A DNA stretch of 64,000 nt from Candidatus Latescibacterota bacterium (lineage in GTDB: Bacteria; Latescibacterota; UBA2968; GCA-2709665): NCBI GenBank assembly GCA_965208835.1, contig OZ242358.1, positions 3,904,001 to 3,968,000 of the forward strand. The letters are read 5' to 3'. Positions 32,922-49,148 of this stretch are shown piece by piece (within the stretch, counting starts at the first letter, position 1; every line of letters starts with the position of its first letter). The position numbers were made by a program, and so were the translations under genes. The notes under the pieces were generated by a model. The model was not told the origin of the DNA and did not search any database. It saw only the letters and a program-made list of their open reading frames with translations.

Positions 32922-33083
32922 GCAGCCCGTTGAAAAAGTCCATCCGCGCTGCGGCCGGCCCTTGCGGTCGAAATACTGCGTTGCGCGCCCTCGCCGAATC
33001 GATGGATGGGACTCGGTTGCGCGCCTTGTCTTCGGCCACAATGGCTCGGCCTCGCCTGCAGAGCGACTTTATCAACGGACTGT
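32922..33083. mobile_element. MITE-like repeat family B (162 bp, TA-flanked)
   Basis: TA|GCAGCCCGTTGAAAAAGTC...GACTTTATCAACGGACTGT|TA. Partial second copy at 2396-2475. Confidence 0.8.
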
Positions 33084-34181
33084 TAGAAGCCAATAGAGAT
33101 TATGAAGGAAGTTGCGGTTGTCGCCGTCGACGTATATCATCTCGCCTCCCATTCGGCTGAACGACTTGCAGAACCTGAGGTAATACGCCGGGTTGTCTTT
33201 GGGAGGTTCGCCACTGGACCAATCCCAGGTCATCGGCGCGAGATCGTTGACAGCTATGAGCGGGCGTATTACGCGTTTGTTTTCCTGAATTCGTAGATTA
33301 TTGGCCAGTGAGAGGGCTTTCTCAAAGACCTGCGGCGCCATGACAGCCGAGCCACTTGAGAGGAAAACGCCCCCATCCAGATCCACCACGCCCCTAGCGA
33401 ACACCCGGAAGTCGATATCCGCGCCGCGTCCGATTGCCGCGCCATTGGCCAGGTGATGGTTGTGGATGATATCGTAGCCGATGCCCGGATGTACCGTAAG
33501 TGGCACGCCGAGACGGTATGCCTGGGCCGTGACGGACGCATCCTTGAAAGGGTGTTCCACGCGGCAGCGGCCGGAAGGAATGCCGAAACGGGAGACGACC
33601 TGGAGCAGTTCGGCGTACGCGGGCATTGCGGGTGAGTCCGTGGGGACTGCGGCCCATTCGCGCAGGGCGGATACCAGGTCGTCGCGGCCGGGGATATCGC
33701 AGCCGTCTTCCGAAATGAACTTCCCCAGCGATTCGCCGTAGCCCCTGCCCTCCAGCGCACCGGCGAGAACGGCCAGATGGATGTATCGGCCGGTTTCCTC
33801 CCACGTACCGAAACACCCCGTCGCGACATTTGCCCGCACGTCTTCTTCGGAACGCCCCTGAAAGGCATACTCCCAGTCGTGAATCGTTCCGGCGCCGTTG
33901 GTGGCCAGATGGGTGATCCAACCGCCCTCCATCAGACGGGTCACGACCGGCCCCAGGCCGTTCTTGACCAGATGGGCGCCGTACGCCAGCATGACGGAGG
34001 CGCCCCGCCGCCTGGCGTCGCGGATTTCTTCGGCAACGCGCCGCAGCCTGTCCGCCAGCAGCCCGGAGCCGGGCGCAGGCGCGTCGGGATCGACCATGAT
34101 CTCGTCGATCGAGAACTTGCTCCGCCTCTCCGACAGAGATCTGAGGACGAGATCCCGATGGTCAATCTGTTGATACGGCAT
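33072..34181 (-). CDS. Conserved hypothetical protein, deoxyhypusine-synthase-like fold
   Basis: GAHLVKNG, HLATNGAGTIHD.E, VHPGIGYDIIH and GSAVMAPQVFEKA motifs. Function not established. Confidence 0.6.
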   Translation of the reverse strand: MPYQQIDHRDLVLRSLSERRSKFSIDEIMVDPDAPAPGSGLLADRLRRVAEEIRDARRRGASVMLAYGAHLVKNGLGPVVTRLMEGGWITHLATNGAGTIHDWEYAFQGRSEEDVRANVATGCFGTWEETGRYIHLAVLAGALEGRGYGESLGKFISEDGCDIPGRDDLVSALREWAAVPTDSPAMPAYAELLQVVSRFGIPSGRCRVEHPFKDASVTAQAYRLGVPLTVHPGIGYDIIHNHHLANGAAIGRGADIDFRVFARGVVDLDGGVFLSSGSAVMAPQVFEKALSLANNLRIQENKRVIRPLIAVNDLAPMTWDWSSGEPPKDNPAYYLRFCKSFSRMGGEMIYVDGDNRNFLHNLYWLLTVR

Positions 34182-34193
34182 GAGCCTGCTTGC

Positions 34194-34619
34194 CTATTTG
34201 GCCACCCAGCCCCGCTTGAGTGGGACGTCGGGAGATTCCAGGACGCCGCCGTAGATCGTCACGGCGGTGATTTTTCCGTTCTGCATCCGGCACATATGCA
34301 CTTCGGTGGCATCCAGCTGTTTGCCGTACATTGCTTCGGGCAGTCCGGGAAGAGGCTGGTTTACGATACCCGTGAAGTGAAACTCCACAGCGGCCATGTC
34401 GTGGTCAGCGACGATATTGAGAATTTCGAGCTGCATGTCCCGCTCTTCCTCGTGACAGCCCTGCCAGAGCGCTACCAGCTTATCCGCACCCCGGATGTTC
34501 AGTGCGCCGCCGACCATGGTCGCGTCGTCGGCGTAGGTTTCGCGAAGTCGCTTCCAGTCACAGGCGAAGGCGGCTTCGAGGGACTCCCGTGCAATTCGAG
34601 CGTTGTTTTCGGCGGACAT
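34194..34619 (-). CDS. SnoaL/NTF2-like (ester cyclase family) protein
   Basis: MSAENN...YADDA...GADK...GKI pattern; AGGGAG RBS. Confidence 0.75.
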   Translation of the reverse strand: MSAENNARIARESLEAAFACDWKRLRETYADDATMVGGALNIRGADKLVALWQGCHEEERDMQLEILNIVADHDMAAVEFHFTGIVNQPLPGLPEAMYGKQLDATEVHMCRMQNGKITAVTIYGGVLESPDVPLKRGWVAK

Positions 34620-34659
34620 TCGCATCTCCCTTTGTAGTTGCCGGATCGTAGCCCTCTCT

Positions 34660-35448
34660 CTATTCCACGTCGGCGCCGATCCGGTATTGTTCGAGATTTC
34701 CCCTGTATTGCAGACCGAGAATCTCACGGGACCGTGCGACATTGCACGTTTTTTCGGCACCCGGCGTCCCCACGACGTGGAATACGTCGAAGTCTATATC
34801 CTGGGACTCCAGGCCCAGCCGGCAGGCTTCCGCGAGGTCGTGGCGGCACACCCAGCCCTGGCGGTAGGGGCGCGCTTCCGTACCCAGTTTTTCCCTGTAG
34901 CGGCCGATCCCGAGCCTGCTGTCAACGATGTAATCAGGCCGGAGCACGATGATGCGCAGCCCGAACGCGTCGTAAAACTGCCGGCACATCTCTTCCTGGA
35001 GGCGTTTCGTGACGCCGTAGAGGCCGCCGTCGGGACGCCTGACGTCGGCCGAGAAGAAGATGCCCCCGGGATGGGCGGTCTGGCACGAACCGATGTGCAC
35101 GATTCTCCCGATGCCGTGCCGCCGGGCGGATTCCAGCACGTTCCAGAGCCCCTTGACGTTGATAAGGAAGGGCTTTGCGTCGTCTGTGCCATGGGCGCCG
35201 GGTTCGTCCGAGTGGTACACCGCCATGTGCAGAACCGCGTCCATGCCCGCCACGGCACGATGAACGGCATCGAAATCCACGATATCACCGTGCACGACGT
35301 CGCCGCCCGTCCACTCGCCGTCGGTATCGTTCCAGGCTTGCCAGGCCTGCGGGCCGTAGTCGAAAGCCCGGATCCGATGGTTCCCGTCCAAAGCGGCCAG
35401 CGCCGCCCTTCCCAGCCAGCCCGCCGCGCCGAATACGACAATGTTCAT
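34660..35448 (-). CDS. NAD-dependent epimerase/dehydrogenase (uronate dehydrogenase-like)
   Basis: GAAGWLG Rossmann motif and YGVTK catalytic motif. Confidence 0.85.
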   Translation of the reverse strand: MNIVVFGAAGWLGRAALAALDGNHRIRAFDYGPQAWQAWNDTDGEWTGGDVVHGDIVDFDAVHRAVAGMDAVLHMAVYHSDEPGAHGTDDAKPFLINVKGLWNVLESARRHGIGRIVHIGSCQTAHPGGIFFSADVRRPDGGLYGVTKRLQEEMCRQFYDAFGLRIIVLRPDYIVDSRLGIGRYREKLGTEARPYRQGWVCRHDLAEACRLGLESQDIDFDVFHVVGTPGAEKTCNVARSREILGLQYRGNLEQYRIGADVE

Positions 35449-35478: not shown

Positions 35479-36885
35479 TCAGAACTTCTCCCCTGCAAGT
35501 CCGTATTTCCTGTAATAGTGACGAAATTGATCGTAGCTCAAGCTGAGCGACTCGGCCGCCTTGCGCTGGTTCCAGTTTGCGCGGCTCAGCGCGCTTCTGA
35601 GCAGGCCGAGTTCAAATGCCGTGACCTGATCGTCAAACCCGTCTCCGGGTGCGGCCACGGCCTCGCTGGTGATTTCCGGCGGCAGGTCCCGCGGCTCGAT
35701 GGACGCGCCCGTTGCCATGCACGCGGCGCGTTCGACGGCGAATTTGAGCTCACGCACGTTTCCAGGCCACGCGTAACCCAACAGCTGGCGCAGGGCGCTT
35801 TCCGAAAACGGTCGGGCCTCGAGGCCCGGCACCTCCCGGACGATCTGTTCGACGAAAAATCCGGCGAGCGGATGGATGTCTTCACGACGCTCCCGAAGCG
35901 GAGGAATGCGGATGATTTCAAAACGCAGGCGGTCGTAGAGATCCTGCCGGAAACGGCCTTCACCAATCTCGCGCTCGAGGTTGGCATTCGTGGCGGCAAT
36001 GATACGTACGTCCACGCTGGTCGGCGCGGCGCCACCCACCCGTTGAATTTCCTGGTACTCGATGGCGCGCAAGACGTTCTGCTGGAACTCGGGCGTGGTG
36101 TTGCCGATCTCGTCCAGCAACAGAGTGCCGCCGTTTGCCGCTTCAAACCGGCCCGGCCGGGCTTCCGTGGCTCCGGTAAAGGCGCCTTTCTCATGGCCGA
36201 AGAGCTCGCTTTCCAGGAGGTTGGCGGAAAGGGCGGCGCAGTTGACTTTGACGAATGGACGATCTCTTCGTAACCCGCCGTAGTGGATCGCTGCGGCTAC
36301 GAGTTCCTTTCCGGTTCCGGGTTCGCCGAGAACCAGGACCGGTCGGGGTATGGAAGCGATGCGCTCTGCCTGTTGCATAATCCGCAGCATCTGGGAGCTG
36401 GCGTTTACCGTCCGGTACTTCTTCCCGAATTCGTCCCGGTAGAAACGGTTCTCCCGGTCCAGATCCTTTACCCTGGCCTGGAGGCGCGCGTTCTCCTTGA
36501 GTACGGCAAGTACGCGGTCGAGTTTTTCGAGGCTGAGTTCGAGCCTGTCCTCTATATAGAAATCCTTCTCGATAAAGTCGGAAGCACCCATGCGCAGGGC
36601 CGCAACGGCATTTTCCACGGTGCCCTTGCCCGTGAGGATAATGACCGGCAAATCGGGTGCGAGATCGCGAATCTGGCGAAGGATTTCGAGACCGTCCGGC
36701 TCGGCCGGTCCGAAATCGATATCCAGAATGGCCATGTCAACGTCCGAAACGTGCTTTCGCAGGTACGCAAAGGCGGCTCTTCCTGTTGGGAAAGCCCTCA
36801 CGATCCGGCCATCAACCTGAAGGCTTCGCGTGAGCATGCCCAGGATTTCGGACTGGTCGTCTGCGACAACGATTTGCGGGTTCAT
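35479..36885 (-). CDS. Sigma-54-dependent response regulator (REC-AAA+-HTH), PspF-like
   Basis: ADD...LDI...TG...EK receiver, [31 protein letters not shown] and [17 protein letters not shown] motifs. Confidence 0.92.
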
Positions 36886-36888
36886 GAC

Positions 36889-38517
36889 TTACTCGATGAA
36901 TTCCTCGGCCAGCGGCAGCCTGGATGAAGATATCGGATCGCCGCTCCAGCCGATGCTGTCTGTTTCGGAAACGAGTTCGAAGTCCACCGGAATGTCGATG
37001 CGAAACACGGCTCCGGCGCCCGGTCTGCTGATCATGCGCAGGTTTCCCCTGTGGGCGGACACGATGCGCGAGCAGATGCTCAGGCCGAATCCATTGCCCT
37101 TTTCTTTGGTTGAGAACCCGGGATCGAAGATTCTGCCCTGGATCTCTTCCGATATGCCGGGCCCGTCGTCTTCCACTTCGATGAAAACCGAAGCCCGCTT
37201 ATTGTCGTAGCCGGCCTGTACCGTGACCACACCCTCCTCGTCTACGGCGTCCAGTGCGTTCAGAATCAGGTTGGTGACGGCTTCCCGCAACATGCCGGGG
37301 TCGACCTTGACCTGCGGAACCTGCGGCTCGTACACGAAGCGGAGCAACGCACCGCCGGTACGGGTAGAGACTGTCTCCCTGATTCTGCCCAACAACGGCG
37401 GAACGTCAACCAGTGTGGGGTTCAACGGGTCCTGCTTCATGCTGCGCAGATAGGCGACCCATTGGTCGTAGATGTGCTCCTGGTCCCGGGCGATCCCTGT
37501 CAGATCATCGAGAAATCTGTCTTCCTGCGGGACCCTTCGAATCAGCCGGCGTGTACGACTCCCGACCAGTCCCATCAGGTTCTTTATCTGGTGGCCCCGC
37601 GTGTACAGGCTCTCACCCACCTGCACACGCCCCATGTCGATGAGTTCGAGGGATAACCGTGCCAGAACCGAGGCTGCCTTTGCGCCGAACTCTTCGATGA
37701 TGGTCGTATATTCCTGCTCCATCTGCGCCGAACTCTTGTGATCGAACAAGAGATGCGCCAGGTTTCTGTAGGGCAGCGCGTAGTCCGGCTCGAGCTGGAT
37801 GGCTATCTTGAATGCGCCAAGTGCCTGGAGGGTCTGACCCGCTTGCATGAGCAGAACCCCAAGGTTGTTGTGACCCGGCGCGAACAGCGGATTCGCTTCA
37901 AGACCGCGACGGTAAACCATGATCGCTTCATCGACGTTTTCCGGAAGGTCGTCGAGGAAGCTGGCGAGCAGGAAGCAGGTGCCGTCCACGTTGCCGAAGG
38001 GCACCCCCCGATCCACGGCATCCAGAATATAACGAAGCGCGTCGACCGCCTGTTGCCGACCCGTCGATCCCGATTCCGCGCCCTCTGCCCGCAAGAGCGC
38101 CAGTTGAAAGTGCGCCGCCAGATGGTCAGGATCAAACCTGGTGGCGGCTTCGAGGTCCTTCAGTCCCCCTTTGAATCCGCCCTTGATCCGGCACAGGCCC
38201 ATCTTGAAATGCATGTCCGCGGCGCGGTCCGGGACAAGATCCAGGCAGACGGTAAAGCAGTCCAGCGCGTCCCCCCAACTGCCCTGTCTGAAGTGTACAA
38301 CGCCCAGGTTATGGCGCGCCCGCACATTCCCGGCATCCTCCGTCAATGCCGCCAGGTAGGCTGCTTCGGCACTCGCCAGGTCGCCAGTTTCCATCGCGTT
38401 GTCGCCGCCACGGCAGTGCCTCCGGGCGTCGGCATTCCCGGATTCAGGCAGGGTCCGGGCGATACCGATACGGTCGGACGGGGCCGGCGCGTTGTCCGGT
38501 AATTCGGATTTATTCAA
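36889..38517 (-). CDS. Soluble histidine kinase with N-terminal TPRs
   Basis: HNLG/HNNLG TPRs, H-box GHQIKN, NLILNA, EDDGPGI, FDPGFSTK and GFGL. No TM segment seen. Confidence 0.88.
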   Translation of the reverse strand: MNKSELPDNAPAPSDRIGIARTLPESGNADARRHCRGGDNAMETGDLASAEAAYLAALTEDAGNVRARHNLGVVHFRQGSWGDALDCFTVCLDLVPDRAADMHFKMGLCRIKGGFKGGLKDLEAATRFDPDHLAAHFQLALLRAEGAESGSTGRQQAVDALRYILDAVDRGVPFGNVDGTCFLLASFLDDLPENVDEAIMVYRRGLEANPLFAPGHNNLGVLLMQAGQTLQALGAFKIAIQLEPDYALPYRNLAHLLFDHKSSAQMEQEYTTIIEEFGAKAASVLARLSLELIDMGRVQVGESLYTRGHQIKNLMGLVGSRTRRLIRRVPQEDRFLDDLTGIARDQEHIYDQWVAYLRSMKQDPLNPTLVDVPPLLGRIRETVSTRTGGALLRFVYEPQVPQVKVDPGMLREAVTNLILNALDAVDEEGVVTVQAGYDNKRASVFIEVEDDGPGISEEIQGRIFDPGFSTKEKGNGFGLSICSRIVSAHRGNLRMISRPGAGAVFRIDIPVDFELVSETDSIGWSGDPISSSRLPLAEEFIE

Positions 38518-38542
38518 TCGGTTACACCTCGATCAAACGGGT

Positions 38543-40057
38543 TTATTCAGAGGCTTTTTCGGTTTTGTCTTCAGTGCCGTCCGCCGGATTCATCCCGCCT
38601 GCCATCCTGCCCAGAAACTCCGGCAGTTCCAGACCCGCCAGTTTTGCCAGTTCGTGCATGGGAGGAATGGCGCCCATCAGACGCTGACCGAGGTTGGTCA
38701 TACCTCCCTGTCCGTTGCCGCCGTCCCAGACCACGATCTTTTCCAGCGGGAGATTCCGAATGGCTTCGGCCTGTATGCCCGCAACCTCGGTCAACCGCTC
38801 CACGATGAGGAAGGCGGCGGCAGCCTGGTCCTTTCCGCCGCACGCGGCAACCAACTCCTTATAACCTTCGGCCTTGGCATCAAGGATGGCCTGGGTGCCC
38901 TCTGCTTCGGCCCTCCTCTCCGCCAGAATCGCGGCGGCCTCGCCTTCAGCCACAAGTGTTTTTCGGGTTTTCTCCGCCTCGGCCTGCACAACCAGCTTCT
39001 GTTTCTGCGCCTCGGCCTCTACGACGATTTCGGCCCTGAGTCGGGCTTCTTCGCGCAGCGACCGGGCTTCCTCGGCCTCTCTCTCCGCCTTTTCCTGGGC
39101 GACCCGGATGGCGCCGTCGGCGGCCTTGGCCGCCTCCTGTCCCGTCTGGCGCGCGACCTCTTCTGCTACCGTCTGCTGCGCCATGTAACCGGCCTTTTTT
39201 GAATCGGCCTCAGCCTCGGCCTGCACCGCTTCCGCGTCCAGAGCAGAGACCATCTGGCGTTTGTTTCTGGTGGCCTCCGCCTCCCCGATCTGGGCTTCGG
39301 ATTCCAGTGCGGCAACCCTCTGTCGCCTGTCCGTGGCGGCTTCCGCCTCGCCGATATCGGCGGCCGCGTTCGCGGCAGCCACGTCCGTACGCTGGTCACG
39401 CTCCCGTTCGGCCACACCCACCTTGCCCATTTTCTCCTGCTCGGCCACGTCGATGGCCGCCTGGTTGATGGCTTCGGCAGCCGCTTTCTGACCAAGGGCC
39501 TTGATATAGCCGCTCTCGTCTTCGATATCCTTGATATTCACATTGATCACGGAGAGACCGATTTTCTCCATTTCGGTTGACACGGCGTCATTGACCTTGG
39601 ACATAAACGCCTGCCGGTCCCGGTTGATTTCTTCGATTTCCATTGTGGCGATCACCGCCCGCATCTGGCCGAGGATGATATCCTGCGCCTGACTCTCGAT
39701 CTGTTCGCGCGAAAGACCCAACAGTCGGATTGCCGCATTTTGCATCACGCCGGTCTGATTTGAAACCGCTGCCGTGACGGTTGTGGGAACCGACACACGG
39801 ATGTTCTCCTGGGAAAGCGCGTTGTCCAGGTCTATGGGAACGACGAACGGCTCCAGGTCCAGATACTCGTAGTCCTGAAGGAGCGGAAGGACGAAGGCAG
39901 CGCCCCCATGTACGCACTTTGCGGCCCCTTTTCCGGTCTTTCCGTAGACGACCAGTATCTTGTTGGAGGGACACCGTTTGTACCTGGAAATGAACGTCAC
40001 GAACAGAAGAAACACCACCAGCAGCAAAATGATCGTTAGAATCGTCTCGGTTGCCAT
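38543..40057 (-). CDS. Flotillin (SPFH + coiled coil)
   Basis: N-terminal TM, RYKRCPSNKILVVYG, GGAAFVLP and INVNIKDI motifs, long EA-rich coiled coil. Confidence 0.93.
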   Translation of the reverse strand: MATETILTIILLLVVFLLFVTFISRYKRCPSNKILVVYGKTGKGAAKCVHGGAAFVLPLLQDYEYLDLEPFVVPIDLDNALSQENIRVSVPTTVTAAVSNQTGVMQNAAIRLLGLSREQIESQAQDIILGQMRAVIATMEIEEINRDRQAFMSKVNDAVSTEMEKIGLSVINVNIKDIEDESGYIKALGQKAAAEAINQAAIDVAEQEKMGKVGVAERERDQRTDVAAANAAADIGEAEAATDRRQRVAALESEAQIGEAEATRNKRQMVSALDAEAVQAEAEADSKKAGYMAQQTVAEEVARQTGQEAAKAADGAIRVAQEKAEREAEEARSLREEARLRAEIVVEAEAQKQKLVVQAEAEKTRKTLVAEGEAAAILAERRAEAEGTQAILDAKAEGYKELVAACGGKDQAAAAFLIVERLTEVAGIQAEAIRNLPLEKIVVWDGGNGQGGMTNLGQRLMGAIPPMHELAKLAGLELPEFLGRMAGGMNPADGTEDKTEKASE

Positions 40058-40208
40058 CGCAATCCCTCCTCAAATGAATATTCCACCATTGAACGAGATC
40101 ACTCCCGGGGGAGGATTCCAACCGGTTTCAATTCTCGATCCTTCTTCCGCGTTGTCGCGGGCCCGCAATCAGGACACTGCAAGCAAGGAGTTCGGAACCG
40201 GAAGTCAA

Positions 40209-40805
40209 TCAGGACGTGATGGGCTCGACCTCAAGCGTGGTTGGACTAACCACCCGGAGAATGCGGACAGGCGTTTTGGCCGAGACCGGCATGCCGTTTT
40301 TTCCGCGGGCAGATACGTAGGCGACCGTCCCGCTCTCTATCACCCGGACCTGCCCTGTGCCGCCCTCCGGTATATCCAGATACACTTCTCCCGACGTGCC
40401 GACGCAGGTATCCAGGCTGGCATTTCCAGTCTCGGTGAGCTGCCGGATGCCGTGGAAGAAATAGGCCACGACCGCCATGCCCGCGCTGCCCCAGACAAGC
40501 GCGTAGACAAGGGCGGTTCGAACTTCCAGCCCTCTTTGCAGATAGAGAGCGCCGGCCCACCCGAACAGCATGCCAAAGGCAATGAGAGACCTGATAGAAA
40601 GCAGCTTGAAAGAGGCAACCGTACCGTCGTTGAACTCCGGCCCGGAATCGCCGAAGTTCGCATCTCCAGACACGGCCGCGTCCGCACCTCCTCCGAGACC
40701 GAGCAAAGCCGCCAGGAGTTGCCAGACGAAAAACGCACTGAAGAAAATCGCCACGACGTAGAAAATCTGGTTGAGTACGGTCAGTTCCATCCACCAGCTA
40801 TCCAT
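40209..40805 (-). CDS. NfeD-like membrane protein, flotillin partner
   Basis: Three TMs with S.RS..AF..FGW.G motif and OB-fold tail (GEVYLDIP...GQVRV). Lies directly upstream of flotillin. Confidence 0.85.
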   Translation of the reverse strand: MDSWWMELTVLNQIFYVVAIFFSAFFVWQLLAALLGLGGGADAAVSGDANFGDSGPEFNDGTVASFKLLSIRSLIAFGMLFGWAGALYLQRGLEVRTALVYALVWGSAGMAVVAYFFHGIRQLTETGNASLDTCVGTSGEVYLDIPEGGTGQVRVIESGTVAYVSARGKNGMPVSAKTPVRILRVVSPTTLEVEPITS

Positions 40806-41072
40806 ATCCGGCTCCCTTCTTCGTACCTCGTTGAATCTGCGCAGCCGATCTCCTGCAAGTGGACATAACGCGGGCTGCGTCCGGCAGCGTCCTGCGCCGC
40901 GAAATGTGATATAGAATATTCTCTGCGTCAATACAAAATCGTGACGGTTTCAGCAGGTGTCTGCCGATGCCGGGCCATTCACTGACCGTGATATCGTCCG
41001 GGAAACCGGCTGAATTTCAATGGCTGGCACCCTGGATCCCGGACCTGATCCCGGACCGGCCGTTATGCGGCA

Positions 41073-41648
41073 TCAGGAGGGCATCAGCCCCCGCTTCTTG
41101 AATTCGCCCTTCAATTGGTAACGTCCGCGGTTGAGCCAGGTCTTTACCGTCCCCATCGGAATCTGAAGCGCCAGGGTGATCTCTTCGTAGGACCAGTCCC
41201 GGACATAACGCATCCAGACGACCTTGCGGTACCTGGCCGGCAATGCGCGAATGCTCTTCCTGACCAGTTCGCGCTGCTGGTTTCGCTCCACCGAGACTTC
41301 CGGATTCTCGTCCACAACGGGCATGCGCGTGGCATCGGCGAGGGCCGCGGGGTCGTCGGTTACCTTTATCCACCTTCGGCGCACCTGCTGTTTGCGAAAG
41401 TGGGATTTGTGCACGTTCAGCGCAATCTGGGTAAGCCAGGTGGCGAATGCGGCCTCGCCTCTGTACGAGCCAAGAGCACCATACGCCTTCAGAAAGGCGG
41501 TTTGAACAAGATCCTGCGCGGTTTCTGGATCGCTCGTCCGTCGCACCATCGTCGCGTAGATTTGTTCATGACAGGCCCGGTAAAGAACACCAAAGGCAGC
41601 CGCGTCGCCATCGATTGCCCTTCGGACCAGATACTGTTCGTTTTCCAT
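41073..41648 (-). CDS. ECF sigma factor (SigW/RpoE-like)
   Basis: GDAAAF, DLVQTAF, FATWL.QIA.N and SYEEI...GTVKT.L.R motifs. Confidence 0.93.
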   Translation of the reverse strand: MENEQYLVRRAIDGDAAAFGVLYRACHEQIYATMVRRTSDPETAQDLVQTAFLKAYGALGSYRGEAAFATWLTQIALNVHKSHFRKQQVRRRWIKVTDDPAALADATRMPVVDENPEVSVERNQQRELVRKSIRALPARYRKVVWMRYVRDWSYEEITLALQIPMGTVKTWLNRGRYQLKGEFKKRGLMPS

Positions 41649-41679
41649 TTATTGGATTTCCTCTTTGAGGTACTGTGAA

Positions 41680-41856
41680 TTACCTGGCGTAACCGGTCAG
41701 CAGCCGGTAACCCACGTAAATCAGGACGAACGACACAAGCAGTTTGAGGAGCAACAACACGATTTCCAGGGACATGCCGATGAGCTTGATCGCTTCGAAG
41801 ATACCTAGGTACGCACCTATGGCGATAAGTATGATGCCGAGAATCTTTGCGAGCAT
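41680..41856 (-). CDS. Small 58-aa hydrophobic two-TM protein, below ORF-track cutoff
   Basis: GAAAGGAA RBS, then MLAKILGIILIAIGAYLGIFEAIKLIGMSLEIVLLLLKLLVSFVLIYVGYRLLTGYAR*. Fills the operon gap. Confidence 0.8.
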   Translation of the reverse strand: MLAKILGIILIAIGAYLGIFEAIKLIGMSLEIVLLLLKLLVSFVLIYVGYRLLTGYAR

Positions 41857-41976
41857 GGGTTTTCCTTTCTCGTTCGAGGTGGTGATGTTGACAAAGAATA
41901 CCTTCTGGACTTTGAAACGAACCAGGAGCCCACTCTATCCCTGGTGTGCGCAGGCGGGATCCGATCTCAACGGCAA

Positions 41977-42354
41977 TCAGCCCGGTGGCCCATTGCCTTC
42001 CGTCCTGCCGAGTTTTTCGTCCATGGAAATCAGTACATCCTGAACGTCCGTCATTCTCCGTTCCAGTTCGTTCAGGCGGGCGTTGACCGATTCTGTCTCT
42101 CGGGCGCCAGTTCCACCGGTCTGGCCGCCGGTACGTCGTCTCAGGAATTTCACAACGCTGCCAATCGCAAGGATTGACACGGCAAGGATCACGGAGATTG
42201 ACAGAATTCCCAACGCAATATCCATGACGAAACCCCTGAAGTCGAAATGGTACGTCGGTGCGAGAGGGTCGCCGAAGAGGAATTTCAGCGTTACCGCACC
42301 TATAAAAAACAGGATAAAGACGACGGCGCCCTTGGTAACGAACTCTCGGTTCAT
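41977..42354 (-). CDS. Two-TM protein with C-terminal coiled-coil motif (paralog 1)
   Basis: AAGGAGG RBS before MNREF; ends ARLNELERRMTDVQDVLISMDEKL. Confidence 0.8.
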   Translation of the reverse strand: MNREFVTKGAVVFILFFIGAVTLKFLFGDPLAPTYHFDFRGFVMDIALGILSISVILAVSILAIGSVVKFLRRRTGGQTGGTGARETESVNARLNELERRMTDVQDVLISMDEKLGRTEGNGPPG

Positions 42355-42385
42355 CAGGCTTCCTCCTTCGGCTTGCAGTCGTTGT

Positions 42386-42961
42386 TCAGACGCTGGTTTT
42401 GTCTCGCCTGAGCCTCTCATCCAGGGTGATGATCACCTCCTGGAGGTCGTTCAGGCGCTGGTCCACGGCGTCCAGCCGGGATTCCATTCGTTTTGCCCGT
42501 TCGGGACTCATCCCCTTGCCTTCCCTCTTCTTTCTCACATGTATATAGCTCACGAAGCCCCCGGCGAAAATAATCAGACAGATGCCGATTCCGATATCCA
42601 TCGCGATGCCCAGCCCCGTTCCGGATTGAGCCAACTCAAGCCGGTCTGCGACGTCCTCGAGTTTACCGGCAGTTGACTCCAGACGTCTCTGATTTTCCAG
42701 GAACAGTCTCACGCCTTCGTCCGTCAGGCCGGCGGTTTTATCGGACAGGGTAAGCGCGGGAACGTCATCGGCATCTGGCAGCAGGTTCCACCGTTCCGAC
42801 GTGAAGGCCCAGATCACGAACCCGACGGCCGCCATCGCCAGGAATATACCCACAGTGGATCCGCTTGGCTTTTTGTTGCCGGGAGTCATTAAATAAACGG
42901 AAAATCCACCCGCGACCATCAGCAGGCAAAGAGCCAACGCCAATTCCAGTATCCAACTCAT
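42386..42961 (-). CDS. Three-TM protein with C-terminal coiled-coil motif (paralog 2)
   Basis: GGAGG upstream of MSWILEL; ends SRLDAVDQRLNDLQEVIITLDERL. Confidence 0.8.
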   Translation of the reverse strand: MSWILELALALCLLMVAGGFSVYLMTPGNKKPSGSTVGIFLAMAAVGFVIWAFTSERWNLLPDADDVPALTLSDKTAGLTDEGVRLFLENQRRLESTAGKLEDVADRLELAQSGTGLGIAMDIGIGICLIIFAGGFVSYIHVRKKREGKGMSPERAKRMESRLDAVDQRLNDLQEVIITLDERLRRDKTSV

Positions 42962-43028
42962 CCTTTTCCCTCCTCTGAAATCCCTGCGTTTCGATAATCC
43001 TGAGTCGGATTTCCGGCTAACTGAATTT

Positions 43029-43403
43029 TCAAGCCACCTTATTGACGTTTCGTGTGGCGGCTTCCGTCGTACTGCTCGCCGCCTCGGCATACTTGAAAAA
43101 GCGCGAGAGCCTCGTCACTTCAAGGGCTTTCCGGATCCGACGGGAAACGCCGCTCAGCCTCAGGTCGCCACCGGCGTTTCGGGTGGATTTCAGGCCCGTT
43201 GCCAGTTCACCGAGCATGGCAGCGCCGACACGATTTACGTGCGAAAAGTCGACCACGACCGTGCGAGCGCCGCTGTCCACCAGGTTCGTTATCTTGCGTC
43301 CCAGGGTCGCCGCGTCCGGGTTGGCGACGGGGTCGCCGCTTACGGAGACGACAACCGTCCCATCCTGAATCCGATCGCTTAGGTGAATGCGTTGTGAATT
43401 CAT
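43029..43403 (-). CDS. STAS-domain (anti-sigma antagonist-like) protein
   Basis: VVVSVSGD, VVVDFSHV, GGDLRL and LEVTRL..FF motifs. Confidence 0.85.
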   Translation of the reverse strand: MNSQRIHLSDRIQDGTVVVSVSGDPVANPDAATLGRKITNLVDSGARTVVVDFSHVNRVGAAMLGELATGLKSTRNAGGDLRLSGVSRRIRKALEVTRLSRFFKYAEAASSTTEAATRNVNKVA

Positions 43404-43489
43404 GATTCAATGCTCCGTATTTTGGTCAGGTTTAAATCTGATGATTCCGGATCCTTCTTCTCGACGTTATCCAATGACTTTGCCAAAAT

Positions 43490-43705
43490 TCACGATGCGC
43501 CTCCCGATACCTGGCGATTCAGCTTTTCATCGATCGCGATCATGATTTCCTGGATATCGGTCAATCTCCTGTCGAGGTCGTCCAGTCTGGCATTCAGACG
43601 CTCCTCGACCTTTCCCGGCAAAACCCCCTTGGACTGCCGATCTACGTATTTGTGTACGGCGGCCGCGAGCACTATCAACGCGATTCCAACACCGACTTCA
43701 AACAT
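43490..43705 (-). CDS. One-TM protein with C-terminal coiled-coil motif (paralog 3, PspB-like architecture)
   Basis: GGAGG RBS; ends ARLDDLDRRLTDIQEIMIAIDEKL. Confidence 0.8.
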   Translation of the reverse strand: MFEVGVGIALIVLAAAVHKYVDRQSKGVLPGKVEERLNARLDDLDRRLTDIQEIMIAIDEKLNRQVSGGAS

Positions 43706-43731
43706 GACATCCCTCCGTCAATTTAGTGATA

Positions 43732-44373
43732 TCAAAGTTCATCCACCGGCTTAGCCCGGTGTTTTTCGGACCCGCGTTCAATTTCGGGAAAGTGATACAC
43801 AACGAGACCGGACTCTGACACACGCACCTCGGCGCTGCCGCCGACGGCCAACGCACCGAGGATCTCTTCCGCTTTACCTACCGTCATCCTCCCGTCAGTA
43901 GCCGCCTCCAGAACGGTGACGCTACCGCCTTTCTCCCGGGCGAGCCTGAGCAATCGATGTTGATACTGCGCGTAGCGCCTATGTTCGGCCGACATGTGGA
44001 CCGAGCGGGCAGCGAGCCATAAAACCAGCGCAAGCGCGATGACGGCGATGCCCACAAAAAAGTCCAGAGGGTCGAGGCTGAAGCCGGACGACTGGAATCC
44101 GGAAAAGACTATGCCCATCAGACCGCCGAAAACGAACAGAATCGCTGTGGCTTTCAGCAGGACCGAGAAAGCGTATCGCATAGAGCAACTCCCGTCAGTG
44201 GCCAGATCGGAGAATCGGAAGGACAGCCGACGCGATCGCGGACATCGAACCGTTCCCGGCATCTGCCGCGCGGGTCGGGTCTTCCGGAAATCACGCCATG
44301 CCTCTGTTGCGTCGCGCATCGTTTTATCGATCTCGTACGCGATTTCGTCCAGGATTTTCTGGAATTCACGCAT
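43732..44373 (-). CDS. Two-TM membrane protein with C-terminal winged-helix-like domain
   Basis: Overlaps the pspA stop by 8 bp. LLRLAREKGGSVTVLEAA...AEEIL..L...VRVSESGLVVYHFPE fits a helix-HTH-wing pattern. Confidence 0.7.
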   Translation of the reverse strand: MREFQKILDEIAYEIDKTMRDATEAWRDFRKTRPARQMPGTVRCPRSRRLSFRFSDLATDGSCSMRYAFSVLLKATAILFVFGGLMGIVFSGFQSSGFSLDPLDFFVGIAVIALALVLWLAARSVHMSAEHRRYAQYQHRLLRLAREKGGSVTVLEAATDGRMTVGKAEEILGALAVGGSAEVRVSESGLVVYHFPEIERGSEKHRAKPVDEL

Positions 44374-45043
44374 CGGATTTGCGGATCTTTTTCTTCAGGG
44401 CCTCGAGTTCCTCTTCCACCGTGTTCCGTCGTTCCAGTTTTTCGAACGTGTCGTCGAGCGAGGGATCTTCGCCTGCGATTTCGGCGTGAGCGGAAGCCTC
44501 GGCTTCTTCGTTCTCAACCCGGCTGCGGAAACGTTCGAAGCTGGAAAAAGCGTCGTCGCCTATGCCCGAGAGCCCTTGGGCGATCTGCTTCCGCGCCTGG
44601 GCGGCGCGTCGCCGCGCGATGAGGGCGCCCTGGCGGGTGCGTGCCTCGTCCAGTTTGGACTTCAGCTGCGACAGTTGCTTCTTGAGTTGATCGGAGGTCT
44701 TGTGGCTCTCTTCGAACGCGACTTCCAAATCGCGGGCGGCTTTTTCAACCGTGGACTTTCGTTCCAGCGCGCGCCGGGCGAGGTCGTCCTCACCGGATTC
44801 CACGGCGAGTTCGGCCTTCTTCTGCCACGCCTCGATCTGGTCCGTCTTATCCAGCAGTTGACGCTCCAGGCGCTTCTCGTTGGCGACGGCGGTCCCGACG
44901 GACGCCGTCGCCTTGTTCACGGCCTCTTCCATTTCGAGGATCATCTGCCGGATCATCTTTTCCGGATCTTCCGCGCGATTCAGAAGGTCGTTTATGTTGG
45001 CCTTGATAATGTCCGCCATTCTGGAGAAAATTCCCTTCGCCAT
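44366..45043 (-). CDS. pspA: PspA/IM30 (Vipp1, ESCRT-III superfamily) protein
   Basis: MAKGIFSRMADIIKANINDLLNRAEDPEKM, W..KA..A...G.DDLAR.AL and VEEELEALK motifs; AAGGAG RBS. Confidence 0.96.
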   Translation of the reverse strand: MAKGIFSRMADIIKANINDLLNRAEDPEKMIRQMILEMEEAVNKATASVGTAVANEKRLERQLLDKTDQIEAWQKKAELAVESGEDDLARRALERKSTVEKAARDLEVAFEESHKTSDQLKKQLSQLKSKLDEARTRQGALIARRRAAQARKQIAQGLSGIGDDAFSSFERFRSRVENEEAEASAHAEIAGEDPSLDDTFEKLERRNTVEEELEALKKKIRKSDA

Positions 45044-45136
45044 GATTATACTCCTTTCTCTTGCGGGTGTCCGTAGCCCGTCACGGTAAAAAATCCCAGA
45101 ATCTGTCACACATCCGCCGATCTACCGTCCACTTAT

Positions 45137-45152
45137 TGCAAGGACCGTGCCC
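45137..45152 (-). promoter_or_regulatory. Sigma-54 (-24/-12) promoter of the pspA operon
   Basis: Minus strand reads GGGCACG-GTCC-TTGCA with exact GG-N10-GC spacing, ~94 bp upstream of the pspA ATG. Confidence 0.85.
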
Positions 45153-45159
45153 ATTTGAC

Positions 45160-45212
45160 AATAAGCCATAGAATTATTTAAATATCTGTTATTTATTGAT
45201 TTATTTCTTAAT
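45160..45212 (-). promoter_or_regulatory. AT-rich tract with IHF-like site upstream of the sigma-54 promoter
   Basis: Minus strand AATCAA-TAAA-TAA at 45189-45201, near match to WATCAA-N4-TTR. Confidence 0.5.
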
Positions 45213-45414
45213 CCCTTGTACGGTTGTCGACGACTGTTGGTGAAATACACCAGATACAAGGCGAAAACGACCGACTTGCATCGGCTCCGGAGGCTCGTTC
45301 ACGTCCATAGCCGACTTGTCTTTTTCGGACAAATGGCGTAAAGTTTGGAGTCCTCTAACCTGAGCGATCGGTGTAGCTGCGGGATTTTTCGAGTTTCCGT
45401 GTAAGTCGGCCAAT

Positions 45415-46536
45415 ATGGACAAGTACAGACAACTGCGCATGCTGAGCGCCGGGCTTTGCCTGGTCATGTTATGTGCAAGCCCTCTTGCCGGGCTTTCGCT
45501 GGTCTACAAGGTTCGTAAGGGCGATTCCCTGTGGTCGATTGCCCGAAAACACCAGACCAGCATCGGGGCGATCAAGCGGATCAACAAGCTGCGGACCAAC
45601 AACGTCTATCCGGGTCAGGTACTCCGTCTGACACCACGGATTGTCAAGTATAACGCAGCGAACGGACCTTATTACTACCGCAAGCCCACTGCCGGCAGGC
45701 AGAGGCATCGGAATTACAGGGAACGTTCGCGTTCGTCCCCGAAGACGGACTATACACGCGCACGAACCCTCCTGCAAGCCTTCGATGCACAAATTTTCGC
45801 CAAAGCCCCGAAAAAGAGATGGCAACCGCTCAAGGGCTGGCGGATTGTGCTTGACCCCGGACATGGGGGTATCGATCCGGGAGCGATCGTTTCGAATACA
45901 ACGGGCAAGGATAGACGGGTATATGTGGTCGAGGATGAATACGTGTACGACATCGCGCTGCGCATGTACAAGAGACTCCGGCTTCTGGGTGCCGAGGTCG
46001 CATTGACGGTGATCAGCCCGAATCACCTGATCCGGGACAACCTGCCGGCCCGCACGACGTTTGTCCACGAACAGAACGAAGTCTACAACGATGAGCGGTA
46101 CAACAGGAGAAATTCGGAAAAGGTGAGACCCAGGAGCGCCAATCTCTCACAGCGAGTCCGGGTGGCGAATCGTTTTTTCAAGAAGGCGCGCAGAGACAGG
46201 TGTCTGTTTGTCTCGCTGCACGCGGATAACACCCCCGGGCGCCCGCAAGGTCCGCTGGTGATCTATCACAAGAGGCGGGGCAGGGTTGACAGGCGTTCCA
46301 GGTCCTTCGCCCGGGTCATGCGTTCGGCCCTGCACCGGCCGAACCTGCCCGCGGGGGACCGGGGGAGGAACCTCGCGGTCCTGCGGAACAACCTGGCTCA
46401 CGCCGAAATTCTCGTTGAAGTTCACAACGTCCACCACAAGCACGAGGCCTGGCTGATTCGACGTCATCCGATACGCGAGCAGAACGCGGACCGAGTCGTT
46501 AAGGGAATCCTGGCTTACGCAAAAAAACGAAGATGA
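45415..46536 (+). CDS. LysM + N-acetylmuramoyl-L-alanine amidase (Amidase_3)
   Basis: Signal peptide, YKVRKGDSLWSIA LysM, LDPGHGG, SLHAD and ILVEV motifs. Confidence 0.88.
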   Translation: MDKYRQLRMLSAGLCLVMLCASPLAGLSLVYKVRKGDSLWSIARKHQTSIGAIKRINKLRTNNVYPGQVLRLTPRIVKYNAANGPYYYRKPTAGRQRHRNYRERSRSSPKTDYTRARTLLQAFDAQIFAKAPKKRWQPLKGWRIVLDPGHGGIDPGAIVSNTTGKDRRVYVVEDEYVYDIALRMYKRLRLLGAEVALTVISPNHLIRDNLPARTTFVHEQNEVYNDERYNRRNSEKVRPRSANLSQRVRVANRFFKKARRDRCLFVSLHADNTPGRPQGPLVIYHKRRGRVDRRSRSFARVMRSALHRPNLPAGDRGRNLAVLRNNLAHAEILVEVHNVHHKHEAWLIRRHPIREQNADRVVKGILAYAKKRR

Positions 46537-46623: not shown

Positions 46624-49068
46624 CTATCTCTCGAATCCCCTGATCCGGAGTGAATTCGAGATCACCGATACGGAACTCATCGCCATGGCGGCGGCCGCCA
46701 CCATGGGCCCGCCGAGCGGGTTGAGAAGGCCGAGAGCCGCCACCGGAATCAACAGTACATTGTAGGCAAACGCCCAGAACAGGTTCTGGCGAATCGTGCG
46801 CACGGTCCGCCCGGACAGGCGGATCGCCGTCTCTATTCCGGTTAGGCTGCCTGACATGAGGGTGATATCCGCGCTTTCCATGGCGACGGCCGTCCCGGTG
46901 CCGACGGCAATGCCAACGTCGGCGGTCGCCAGGGCGGGCGCGTCGTTGACGCCGTCTCCGACCATTGCCACACAATGCCGCCGGTCCTGCAATTCCGAGA
47001 TGCGGGCGGCTTTCTCGTTGGGCATGACCCCGGCAATGACCCGAGGGATTTCCGCGTGTTCCGCGACGGTTACGGCGGTCCTTGCGTTGTCTCCCGTCAG
47101 GAGGATGACGGTCAGGTCAAGTAACTTGAGATCTGCAACGGCGCGGACGGAATCGGGCTTCAGGACGTCGGCCACGCCGATGAGGCCTTCCACCTGATCG
47201 TCGACGGCGACGAAAAGGACCGTTTTACCGTCCGCTTCCAGTCGAGCCGCCTTCGCATCCAGGTCGTCGGTCAATACGACCTGGCTTCCCACCAACCGCC
47301 GGTTGCCCAGTAGAACGGTGCGACCGGCCTTTTTTGCGCGCACGCCCTGCCCCGGCAGGGCTTCGAATTCGTGAGATTCCTCAACGGACAGTTTCCGTTC
47401 CCGCGCCGCGTTCCGGATGGCTTCTCCTAGGGGGTGTTCGGAGCCCTGTTCAACGGACGCTGCCAACCTGAGCAGATCCGATTCCGAGCCTGTACCTGTT
47501 GTGACGAAGTCGGTAACGGCAGGCCTTCCGGTTGTGAGGGTGCCGGTCTTGTCCAGGACGATCGTGTCCAGGCGGTGGGCGGTTTCGAGTACCGGGCCGC
47601 CCTTGATGAGGACGCCCAGTTCCGCCGCCCGGCCGGTGCCGACCAGTATGGCCGTGGGCGTGGCCAGGCCCAGCGCGCACGGACAGGCGATAATGAGGAC
47701 GGCAACGGCGTTGAGCAACGCGTGTGAGGCGCCGGATCCGGAACCGGCAATCCACCACAGGACGAACGTAAGCAGGGCGACGCCGAAAACGACCGGCACA
47801 AAGATCCCGGCAACCCGGTCCGCGACCCGCTGAACGGGAGCGCGCGAGCCCTGGGCCTGTCGAACCATCCGAACGATCCGGGCGTGTACCGTTTCGGCGC
47901 CGACCTGTGTAGCCCTTACCGTGAAACTCCCGGTCTTGTTGAGCGTTGCACCCAGAACCCGGCTTTGCCTGCCTTTTTCAACGGGCATGCTCTCACCCGT
48001 GATCACAGACTCGTCGACGCTCGATTGCCCCTCCTGCACGACACCGTCTACAGGGATTCTGTCGCCCGGCCGGATGCGAATGAGGTCGCCCACGGCGACA
48101 TCCTCGACAGGAACCAGCGTCTCCTCGCCGTTCCTGATGACACATGCGGTCTCGGGACGGAGATCCATCAGCGCACGGATGGCGTCGGCGGCGCGGCCGC
48201 GGGACCGGATTTCCAGCAACCGGCCCAGGAGGATGAGGGTGATGATCATGGCGGAGGTGTCGAAGTATACGCTGACGGCCCCGCCCGGACCGGCAACGGC
48301 ATGGGGCGCGGCAACGCCGGCGACGCTGTATCCGTATGCCGCCAGCGTTCCGACGGCAATAAGGCTGTTCATGTCGGCCGTCATGTGCCGCAGGCCGCTC
48401 CAGAACCCCTTTAGAAAGCGCCATCCGCACCAGAATTGTACAGGAGTTGCCAGGAGGAAGAGCAGAAGGTGGACCTGCCGGATGGAGTACGGCGCTCCCA
48501 GGAATTCGTTCAGCATGCCCGCGCTCATTATCAGTATTGACAGCGCGGCCGCGAAAATGAATCGTACGCGGACCGAGCGCTGCTCCGCCCGTTCTTCCTC
48601 CCGCTCTCCGTCGTTCGCGGCGGCGTCCTGTTTCACGACTGTTGCGGCGTACCCTGCATCGATTACCGCGCGCGTCAGCGTGGAATCGGGGACCGCGAAA
48701 TGGCGCACCGTGGCGTGACGGGCCGCGAGGTTGACCTCGCTGTCGACGACGCCGGGAACCCCTGTTAACGCGTTCTCAATTGCGGACACGCAGGCGGCAC
48801 AGTGCATGTCGCGGACGGCGAGTCTCGTCTCGTCCGTGCGGATCCCGTAGCCGAGACTCTCGATTTTTCCAACAAGCCGCTTGACAGCGTCCCGATCAGA
48901 CCTGATCAGGACGCTGGCCTCTCCCGTCGCATAGTTGACGACCGCTTCCTTTGTGCCGTGGTCCTGTCGCAATTCTTCCTGGATGCGGGCGGCGCAGGCG
49001 GCGCAGCTCATCCCGGTAACGGGTAAGGTCAGGCTGACATTACCACTCGACTCTGGAATTTCGGACAT
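46624..49068 (-). CDS. copA: Cu(I)-translocating P1B ATPase with two HMA domains
   Basis: MSCAAC and [35 protein letters not shown] and MAMSS motifs. Confidence 0.95.
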
Positions 49069-49148
49069 GCCGTATCGGTCCTGTTCCTTCCACGGTGCCA
49101 CGACTCGATCGAATAGATTCAGCTAAAAATTCAGGGAGCCCCGGAGCC

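Follow-up and report, generated by a model that had tools for sequence, protein, structure and literature searches.

A candidate Psp membrane-stress system of the Latescibacterota with a sigma-54 promoter, two new partner families and inserted modules

Twelve consecutive open reading frames (ORFs), g01 to g12, all on the minus strand, occupy positions 35479-45109 of a 64,000-nucleotide (nt) stretch of DNA, hereafter the window, from a metagenome-assembled genome (MAG) of Candidatus Latescibacterota that totals 5.18 Mb. The cluster opens with pspA and closes with the genes of a histidine kinase and a sigma-54 activator, which enclose genes for small membrane proteins, an extracytoplasmic function (ECF) sigma factor and a flotillin. 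We consider it likely that these genes form a Psp-type membrane-stress system specific to the Latescibacterota, which grew by insertion and in which the kinase would act on pspA through the activator and sigma-54. Psp/IM30 proteins are bacterial relatives of ESCRT-III, and, to our knowledge, their recruitment and regulation are poorly known outside a few model phyla.

Promoter, upstream sites and the linked regulators

A promoter of the sigma-54 -24/-12 type, GGCACGGTCCTTGCA (45137-45151, minus strand), lies 94 nt before the pspA ATG, so that the twelve co-oriented genes behind a sigma-54 promoter that were described in the original prediction, made from the window alone, are indeed present. 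The genome also encodes RpoN (429 bits against a cut-off of 277), and the exact form GGCACG-N4-TTGC[AT] occurs just nine times on both strands of its 5.18 Mb. For comparison, we scanned one genome per species with an alignment of the g02 protein, whose gene follows pspA, and obtained 45 related loci from MAGs labelled Candidatus Latescibacterota or Latescibacteria, with a few labelled Gemmatimonadota or "uncultured bacterium". Upstream regions were usable for 44 of these, one further locus being left out as its pspA lies at a contig end. A GG-N10-GC motif stands 71-109 nt before pspA in all 44, in 26 of them in the strict form GGCAC-N5-TTGC, and it also precedes pspA in 8/8 loci of a sister order (52/52 in total), against 0.025 chance occurrences of the loose motif per 300 nt in the window genome.

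The promoter is accompanied by a probable enhancer, or upstream activating sequence, at 45238-45272 (minus strand), composed of the palindrome TGGTGTATTTCACCA (45238-45252) and a degenerate site, GGTCGTTTTCGCC (45260-45272). Alignment of 14 upstream regions places the palindrome, 15 bp in length, about 100 bp upstream of the -24 element, with the weaker second site 22 bp further upstream and an AT-rich stretch between the sites and the promoter. Among the 44 related loci, a full TGGYN-N5-NRCCA site precedes the -24 element by 60-150 nt in 34, and two or more core sites are present in 32; in the sister order sites of the TGGCG-N5-CGCCA type are found in tandem, 21-22 bp apart, at five of eight loci and singly at the other three. 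As read from the alignments, this arrangement of sites and promoter is the classical layout of an enhancer-dependent promoter.

Three PspA paralogues are encoded in the window genome, and an upstream site combined with a sigma-54 motif no more than 260 nt away is found at exactly two places genome-wide, before pspA and before the solitary paralogue pspA3 (C1:1142507-1143184). The latter has its own promoter, TGGCACGACATTTGTA, with GT rather than GC at -12, and a TGGCGTATCACGCCA site 90 bp upstream; its orthologues in the genus keep the promoter at 14/14 loci and the upstream site at 11/14. The third paralogue (C1:262533-263818, followed by a gene for a DUF4178 protein) has neither the sigma-54 motif nor the upstream site before it and, lacking that motif, seems to form a PspA unit of its own under different control. 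Because promoter and upstream sites are conserved and restricted to pspA genes, there is good comparative evidence that one activator controls these genes through sigma-54.

A further palindrome of the form TTGTC-N7-GACAA, TTGTCCGAAAAAGACAA (45316-45332, minus strand), is found between the enhancer sites and the divergent amidase gene described below; it is conserved in the window's family only and could serve as a site for some other regulator.

The last two genes encode candidates for the activator and its kinase. The g11 product (36889-38517, minus strand) is a soluble TPR histidine kinase of 542 residues that matches TPR families and HATPase_c (6.6e-23) and has no hydrophobic or transmembrane (TM) segment. 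Its kinase core resembles those of AtoS, ZraS and NtrB, with models covering residues 287-513; HisKA gave no match in g11, and we read its H-box by eye as G-H-Q-I-K-N. The start of g12 (35479-36885, minus strand) overlaps the g11 stop, and its 468-residue product has the receiver (REC)-AAA+-helix-turn-helix (HTH) architecture of a sigma-54 activator, with matches to Response_reg (1e-19), Sigma54_activat (1.1e-62) and AAA_lid_14, a sub-threshold match to HTH_8 and an intact GAFTGA motif. At the level of sequence the two proteins have the pattern of an NtrB/NtrC-type two-component system, a kinase core and a REC-AAA+(GAFTGA)-HTH regulator encoded together. The earlier description of g12 as "PspF-like" holds for its AAA+ and HTH parts, which are 45% identical to E. 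coli PspF, and fails for the protein as a whole, which has a receiver domain and scores 347 bits on the PspF model (TIGR02974, cut-off 443.55) and 334 on that of NtrC, both under cut-off. In addition, a tryptophan of PspF that we take to be its contact with PspA aligns with an arginine in g12. With the promoter motif at 52/52 loci and conserved palindromes upstream of it, the arm proposed to run from kinase through enhancer-binding protein and sigma-54 to pspA is well supported by comparison of sequences.

We propose that a membrane-stress signal would raise PspA, as in the Psp or Lia systems. Kinase g11 would phosphorylate g12, which would bind the tandem TGGYG-N5-CRCCA sites about 100 bp upstream of the -24/-12 promoter, and sigma-54 RNA polymerase would then transcribe pspA and the genes packed behind it; the same activator would also drive the solitary pspA3 in the window's genus. 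Stress would in addition raise the RpoE-like ECF sigma factor, as its gene rides on the pspA transcript. The g02 product and the TM-coil proteins (g03, g05 and g06) would probably, by analogy, take PspC- and PspB-like roles, serving as membrane partners or sensors of PspA, or as signallers to the TPR kinase. PspC of Yersinia binds PspA.

Conservation across the phylum and order of insertions

Gene content was counted at the 39 of 45 related loci that extend 8.5 kb or more downstream of g02, six being dropped for short contigs. pspA, g02 and the ECF, kinase and activator genes are present at all 39 loci, TM-coil genes (one or more) at 38, a g07-like miniprotein gene before the ECF gene at 38, the pair of NfeD-like and flotillin genes at 35 and the STAS gene at 12. 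Order and strand are identical throughout, as the original prediction required of its cluster, and 12 loci taken directly from relatives give the same gene picture.

Among 168 genomes of the phylum, 20/21 and 30/31 in the two families of the window's order encode a full-length g02, and 50/76 in a sister family (f4) encode a short form without the first ~70 residues; neither form is encoded in any of the 39 genomes of the remaining families. At all eight sister-order loci, pspA is joined by the short g02, one or two TM-coil genes, the TPR kinase and the activator, and the ECF sigma factor, g07, the NfeD-like gene and the flotillin are absent.

Since the sister order has these five genes only, the set of pspA, g02, TM-coil, kinase and activator is likely the ancestral core common to both orders. 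In the simplest history consistent with these gene contents, g07 and an RpoE-like ECF sigma factor would have been inserted behind the TM-coil genes in the window's order, the NfeD-like/flotillin pair would then have entered between the ECF and kinase genes in most members, and the STAS gene and extra TM-coil paralogues would have been added in the window's genus and its close relatives.

Gene spacing bears on how much of this cluster one promoter could serve. From pspA through the ECF gene, neighbours in the window overlap or are separated by no more than about 120 nt, and g07 and the ECF gene stand close behind the TM-coil genes, which confirms that the ECF gene lies inside a tightly packed pspA operon. 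Larger gaps follow, 267 nt between the ECF gene and g09 (40806-41072) and 151 nt between g09 and the flotillin gene, so that the single promoter claimed for all twelve genes is plausible for the first eight only. Where the flotillin pair is missing, the kinase gene overlaps the ECF gene (L068) or begins 2 nt (L066) or 31 nt (L059) behind it, a range of -4 to 31 nt, and at four other loci 91-326 nt separate the two; as they overlap or nearly abut at some of these loci, the core can, judged by this spacing, be one sigma-54 transcript with positive autoregulation.

Proteins of the cluster

Gene calls were taken from the ORF list of the window, and the twelve proteins were searched with Pfam and NCBIfam models. 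Pfam matches above threshold identify six products, PspA, the STAS protein, the ECF sigma factor, the flotillin, the TPR histidine kinase and the REC-AAA+ activator, and no Pfam or NCBIfam model exceeds its threshold for the other six (g02, g03, g05, g06, g07 and g09). The parts list given in the original prediction stands for the former six and for the TM winged-helix and TM-coil proteins, with weaker support for nfeD. Its statement that pspC, liaF and anti-sigma genes are missing also holds: PspB (PF06667) has zero matches genome-wide at E<=10, PspC (PF04024) has none over cut-off genome-wide (best 14.4 bits, outside the cluster), and no cluster protein, the small ones included, matched anti-sigma, LiaF, LiaI or Toastrack models. 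PspA itself (g01, 44366-45043, minus strand, 225 residues) matches PF04012 (E 2e-48) and is 39% identical to E. coli PspA over its full length (222 residues), although it scores 185 bits on TIGR02977, under the cut-off of 243.

The start of g02 (43732-44373, minus strand, 213 residues) overlaps the pspA stop, and the gene follows pspA directly at all loci. Its product has two hydrophobic segments and consists of an N-terminal helix, a conserved SDLATDGSC-MRY motif, a pair of TM helices, a C-terminal winged helix and an acidic tail, likewise conserved, that ends in ...PVDEL. A structural model (predicted local distance difference test, pLDDT, 76.8) predicts a cytoplasmic helix at residues 2-31 and the winged helix at 132-202. 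Foldseek found no match to the g02 model in the PDB at E<=0.001, and a second structural aligner gave Z of about 10 for residues 132-202 against solved winged helices, with Zalpha, ArsR/MarR and TFE (Z 9-10) tied with an ESCRT-II subunit (3cuq_A/2zme_A, Z 9.7 over 69 residues at 23% identity). Protein-binding winged helices (ESCRT-II, PCI) thus score as well as DNA-binding ones, and the modelled fold is best described as a generic winged helix, ESCRT-II being tied with DNA-binding families.

Close homologues of g02 number 125, all unnamed, and a profile search of 1.84 billion representatives returned 1181 proteins at E<=0.001. Most of those from outside the lineage have ~150 residues with two TM helices and a winged helix, or combine the domain in a fusion with TMEM43 or RDD membrane domains; none of those found by the profile search has a known function, and weak MarR_2 and HTH_24 matches appear among the distant ones. 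Two soil-type metagenome contigs encode such ~150-residue relatives (L083:2293-3006 and L084:6284-6958), and there the next gene, with overlapping stop and start, encodes two TFIIB-type zinc ribbons, an uncharacterised pair.

The founding member of the TM-coil family is g03 (43490-43705, minus strand), a protein of 71 residues with a single TM helix and a conserved coil, R-L-T-D-I-Q-x-x-M-I-x-I-D-E-K-L. Alignment identifies g05 (42386-43090, minus strand; three hydrophobic segments, coil matching g03 at E 1e-11) and g06 (41977-42420, minus strand; two hydrophobic segments, recognised from the ORF list and relatives) as paralogues that share with g03 the TM helix, a basic juxtamembrane stretch and a near-invariant C-terminal coil. 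The real start of g05 is probably near 42961, because the conserved part begins at ORF residue 44, and that of g06 probably near 42354, because its relatives have 125-128 residues. The 393 homologues of the family are all unnamed and come from the same lineage, and the g03 family is present in 39 of 41 related genomes. We rejected these proteins as PspB homologues, since a genome-wide search with the Pfam PspB model came back empty and the probability of a match to E. coli PspB was 3.8% by hhalign; judged by their sequences, they are built like PspB with undetectable homology.

Directly upstream of the ECF gene, g07 (41680-41856, minus strand) encodes a 58-residue miniprotein, predicted to be a hairpin of two TM helices without a soluble domain, with nine close homologues, all unnamed; in relatives it follows a TM-coil gene at short distance. 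The ECF sigma factor itself (g08, 41073-41648, minus strand, 191 residues) has sigma-70 regions 2 and 4 only (Sigma70_r2 2.2e-15, r4_2 1.3e-13) and scores above cut-off on TIGR02937 (102 bits). Its nearest solved chains are 6in7_B (2.3e-27), E. coli sigma-E (1or7, 4e-22) and SigW (5wuq, 2.4e-18), which by similarity places it in the RpoE/AlgU/SigW-like group. No recognisable anti-sigma factor is encoded among its neighbours by Pfam and NCBIfam models.

The 267-nt spacer behind g08 (40806-41072, minus strand) has a genus-conserved block, GAAAC..TTGAC..TCTATATCACATTT, as a possible internal promoter. Across loci with the flotillin pair the spacer measures 82-278 nt, and the block is conserved within each genus. 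By eye we saw no ECF-type -35/-10 motif shared across genera in 35 regions upstream of g09, the ECF consensus of g08 being not known. To our eye, the block resembles an ordinary Bacteroidota-type promoter, the consensus of which is TTG, ~20 nt, A-N2-TTT.

Behind this spacer, g09 (40209-40805, minus strand) encodes 198 residues from the ATG at 40805, its real start probably lying downstream of the longest ORF start. Its predicted layout, three TM helices and a C-terminal beta domain, is NfeD/YqiJ/YuaF-like. The window copy has no Pfam match even at E<=10, 9 of 13 orthologues match PF01957 below threshold (best E 0.009), and a model of pLDDT 58.8 has the three TM helices and the beta domain, the latter at pLDDT 35-52. 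Among its Atlas neighbours, 11% have NfeD_TM and 14% YqiJ domains. Direct comparison with E. coli YqiJ by hhalign found no similarity. From the sub-threshold NfeD matches, the Atlas neighbours and the position before a YqiK-like flotillin gene, the label "NfeD/YqiJ-like" is reasonable, not proven. The flotillin (g10, 38543-40057, minus strand, 504 residues) has an N-terminal TM helix (residues 1-29), an SPFH domain (Band_7, 5.2e-28) and a long coiled coil; it shares 25% identity with YqiK of E. coli (E 3e-13) and scores 139.9 bits on the FloT model, under the cut-off of 700.

The STAS-domain protein (g04, 43029-43403, minus strand, 124 residues) matches PF01740 (5.7e-11) and scores 43.4 bits on TIGR00377, under the cut-off of 53.45; by Pfam, no kinase of the RsbW/SpoIIAB type is encoded in the cluster.

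Competing explanations, known systems and surroundings

Several observations weigh against the Psp-type system proposed here. Only its constant linkage ties g12 to the upstream sites, because the genome encodes eleven other activators among 12 full-length sigma-54 activators. The roles suggested for g02 and the TM-coil proteins are argued by analogy, because homology to PspB and PspC was looked for and not found. The winged-helix module does not seem to be a universal PspA partner, because distant relatives adjoin a zinc-ribbon gene: a single-protein scan for distant relatives with two TM helices and a winged helix returned six loci, and in the two that were examined the neighbour encodes a double zinc ribbon rather than PspA, a sample too small to generalise. 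Loci from related species are not independent samples, and the counts above measure retention rather than independent origins. The gaps of 267 and 151 nt may divide the cluster between transcripts; simple scans gave four sigma-70 promoters against 3.2 expected by chance and 13 terminators against 11.1, and no RNA run is among the 23 runs that match the stretch 35479-45300.

The original prediction had joined all of the parts in a linear cascade, a single twelve-gene sigma-54 operon in which the ECF sigma factor would drive nfeD-flotillin as sigmaW does and the small proteins would couple PspA to flotillin. Such a cascade draws on the ECF gene being packed into the pspA operon, on the NfeD-like/flotillin pair that follows that gene at 35/39 loci and on the conserved spacer before g09, which could contain a promoter; the sigmaW regulon of B. 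subtilis includes both pspA and yuaF-floT. We nevertheless regard it as unlikely, given that the ECF gene occurs without the pair at 4/39 loci and the core without both at 8/8 sister-order loci, and that by eye no ECF-type -35/-10 motif is common to the g09 upstream regions of different genera. Because the ECF gene occurs without nfeD-flotillin, the idea of a dedicated "sigmaW-like" regulator of that pair loses ground, and the pair, missing from the same related and sister-order loci, does not belong to the core. The same gene contents might be taken as the mark of separate modules lying side by side, a Psp unit and its two-component regulator enclosing unrelated ECF and NfeD-flotillin units, as each insert exists alone elsewhere (E. 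coli yqiJ-yqiK is an example), the insertions are lineage-specific and spacers flank the flotillin pair. We think this quite unlikely, since the inserts are kept between pspA and its regulators in the same order and on the same strand in two families and 35/39 loci, every part is membrane-stress themed, and the g07-ECF segment follows the TM-coil genes with short gaps. In the Psp-type system that we favour, the flotillin pair is probably expressed together with the other genes or works alongside them, yet the system can do without it.

Two further possibilities concern g02. As a two-faced hub, it would anchor or nucleate PspA through its winged helix and, through its N-terminal extension acting as a short anti-sigma domain, hold the ECF sigma factor; PspA recruitment to damaged membrane would then release the sigma factor, and the soluble TPR kinase may dock on the acidic C-terminal tail. 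ESCRT-II winged helices nucleate ESCRT-III, and the N-terminal extension is restricted to the order that also has g07 and the ECF gene. A complex prediction for PspA and residues 128-213 of g02 scored 0.02 against a mark of 0.32 and counts as evidence neither way. We consider this arrangement improbable; if true, it would be a new coupling of a membrane-remodelling polymer to transcription. That g02 is instead a membrane-tethered DNA-binding regulator, acting for example on the palindrome at 45316-45332, and no PspA adaptor seems to us very improbable. Its top structural matches do include Zalpha, ArsR, MarR and TFE (Z 9-10), distant relatives have their weak MarR_2 and HTH_24 matches, and a conserved palindrome lies upstream. 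However, the presumed recognition helix, T-V-E-K-T-E-E-I-L-R-E-L in alignments read by eye, is acidic or hydrophobic, the protein-binding winged helices of ESCRT-II and PCI proteins score equally, and conservation of the palindrome ends with the window's family.

Set against known systems, the cluster resembles enterobacterial Psp (pspF/pspABCDE) in its PspA (39% identity), in a sigma-54 promoter with upstream activator sites, in an AAA+ activator 45% identical to PspF and in small membrane proteins encoded right behind pspA. Enterobacterial PspF is an AAA+-HTH activator without a receiver domain that is held in check by PspA, whereas the activator here has a receiver and is paired with a soluble TPR kinase, the two genes being co-oriented with the cluster at its end rather than divergent; PspB, PspC, PspD and PspE are lacking, and the cluster also encloses the gene of an ECF sigma factor and a flotillin pair. 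The likeness to Bacillus Lia (liaIH-GFSR) consists in a PspA homologue with small membrane partners and a dedicated two-component system, although the kinase here is a soluble TPR protein not of the LiaS type and the regulator is a sigma-54 activator, not LiaR. As in yuaF-floT(-yuaI) of B. subtilis and yqiJ-yqiK of E. coli, a gene for a small multi-TM protein stands just upstream of the flotillin gene; in contrast to those, g09 is too divergent for NfeD/YqiJ models and the pair is placed between the ECF and kinase genes. A precedent for sigma-54-driven ECF wiring, by analogy, is the HrpR/HrpS-sigma-54-HrpL cascade of type III secretion in Pseudomonas syringae, where enhancer-binding proteins and a sigma-54 promoter likewise govern the gene of an ECF sigma factor that has no known anti-sigma factor. 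That promoter belongs to the ECF gene itself, in contrast to the distal position of g08 in the pspA operon, and the functions differ.

Association of PspA with flotillin, for which the original prediction had already claimed no novelty, has been reported in a different context. In the available passages of Ravi et al. 2024 (PMC11237479), PspA occurs with band-7/flotillin and YqiJ/YuaF-type three-TM proteins around a CesT/Tir-PspA dyad and a novel AAA+ ATPase, and no protein of the present cluster matched a CesT/Tir model or one of such an ATPase. The same passages cover variants of pspFABC, among them duplicated PspB and NtrC-like regulators that carry ACT or PAS domains, as well as two-component systems with HTH regulators; they do not mention Latescibacteria, sigma-54 two-component control of this kind, a TPR kinase with a REC-AAA+ regulator, an ECF gene in a pspA operon, g02 or TM-coil proteins, and the supplements or web application of that paper may list the layout. 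Literature searches, including one for Latescibacteria with PspA, likewise returned no description of it. According to the part available to us of Popp et al. 2022 (PMC9239133), PspF outside the Enterobacteriaceae is hard to tie to Psp.

We therefore regard the cluster as a Psp variant, of specialist interest and not categorically new, that has two new partner families and a documented history of growth by steps. If the proposed wiring is right, a soluble TPR kinase and an NtrC-type regulator acting through sigma-54 would be a third regulatory design for PspA, after PspF and LiaRS, with clear DNA sites for the regulator that are open to experiment. The 2TM winged-helix and TM-coil families, both conserved, would occupy the places of PspC and PspB, and the natural series of insertions (ECF sigma factor, flotillin, STAS) suggests which membrane-stress modules cooperate. 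Although the phylum is uncultured, the small size of the parts would allow their reconstruction in a laboratory host.

An Rfam search of the window returned zero families. Divergent from pspA, the plus strand carries the gene of a cell-wall amidase with LysM and Amidase_3 domains (45415-46536), which is the upstream neighbour at 42/45 related loci and was not detected by tblastn at the eight sister-order loci; beyond it, on the minus strand (46624-49101), lies the gene of a P-type ATPase that has two heavy-metal-associated domains and probably exports copper or heavy metals. DNA near-identical or related to the stretch 35479-45300 is present in sponge and marine metagenome runs of 12 studies, which suggests that the lineage is sponge-associated or marine. 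Downstream, at 33072-35448 on the minus strand, the genes of an NAD-dependent epimerase-family protein (34660-35448) and of a 369-residue protein without a Pfam family (33072-34181) are kept beside the cluster in the window's genus and some close relatives.

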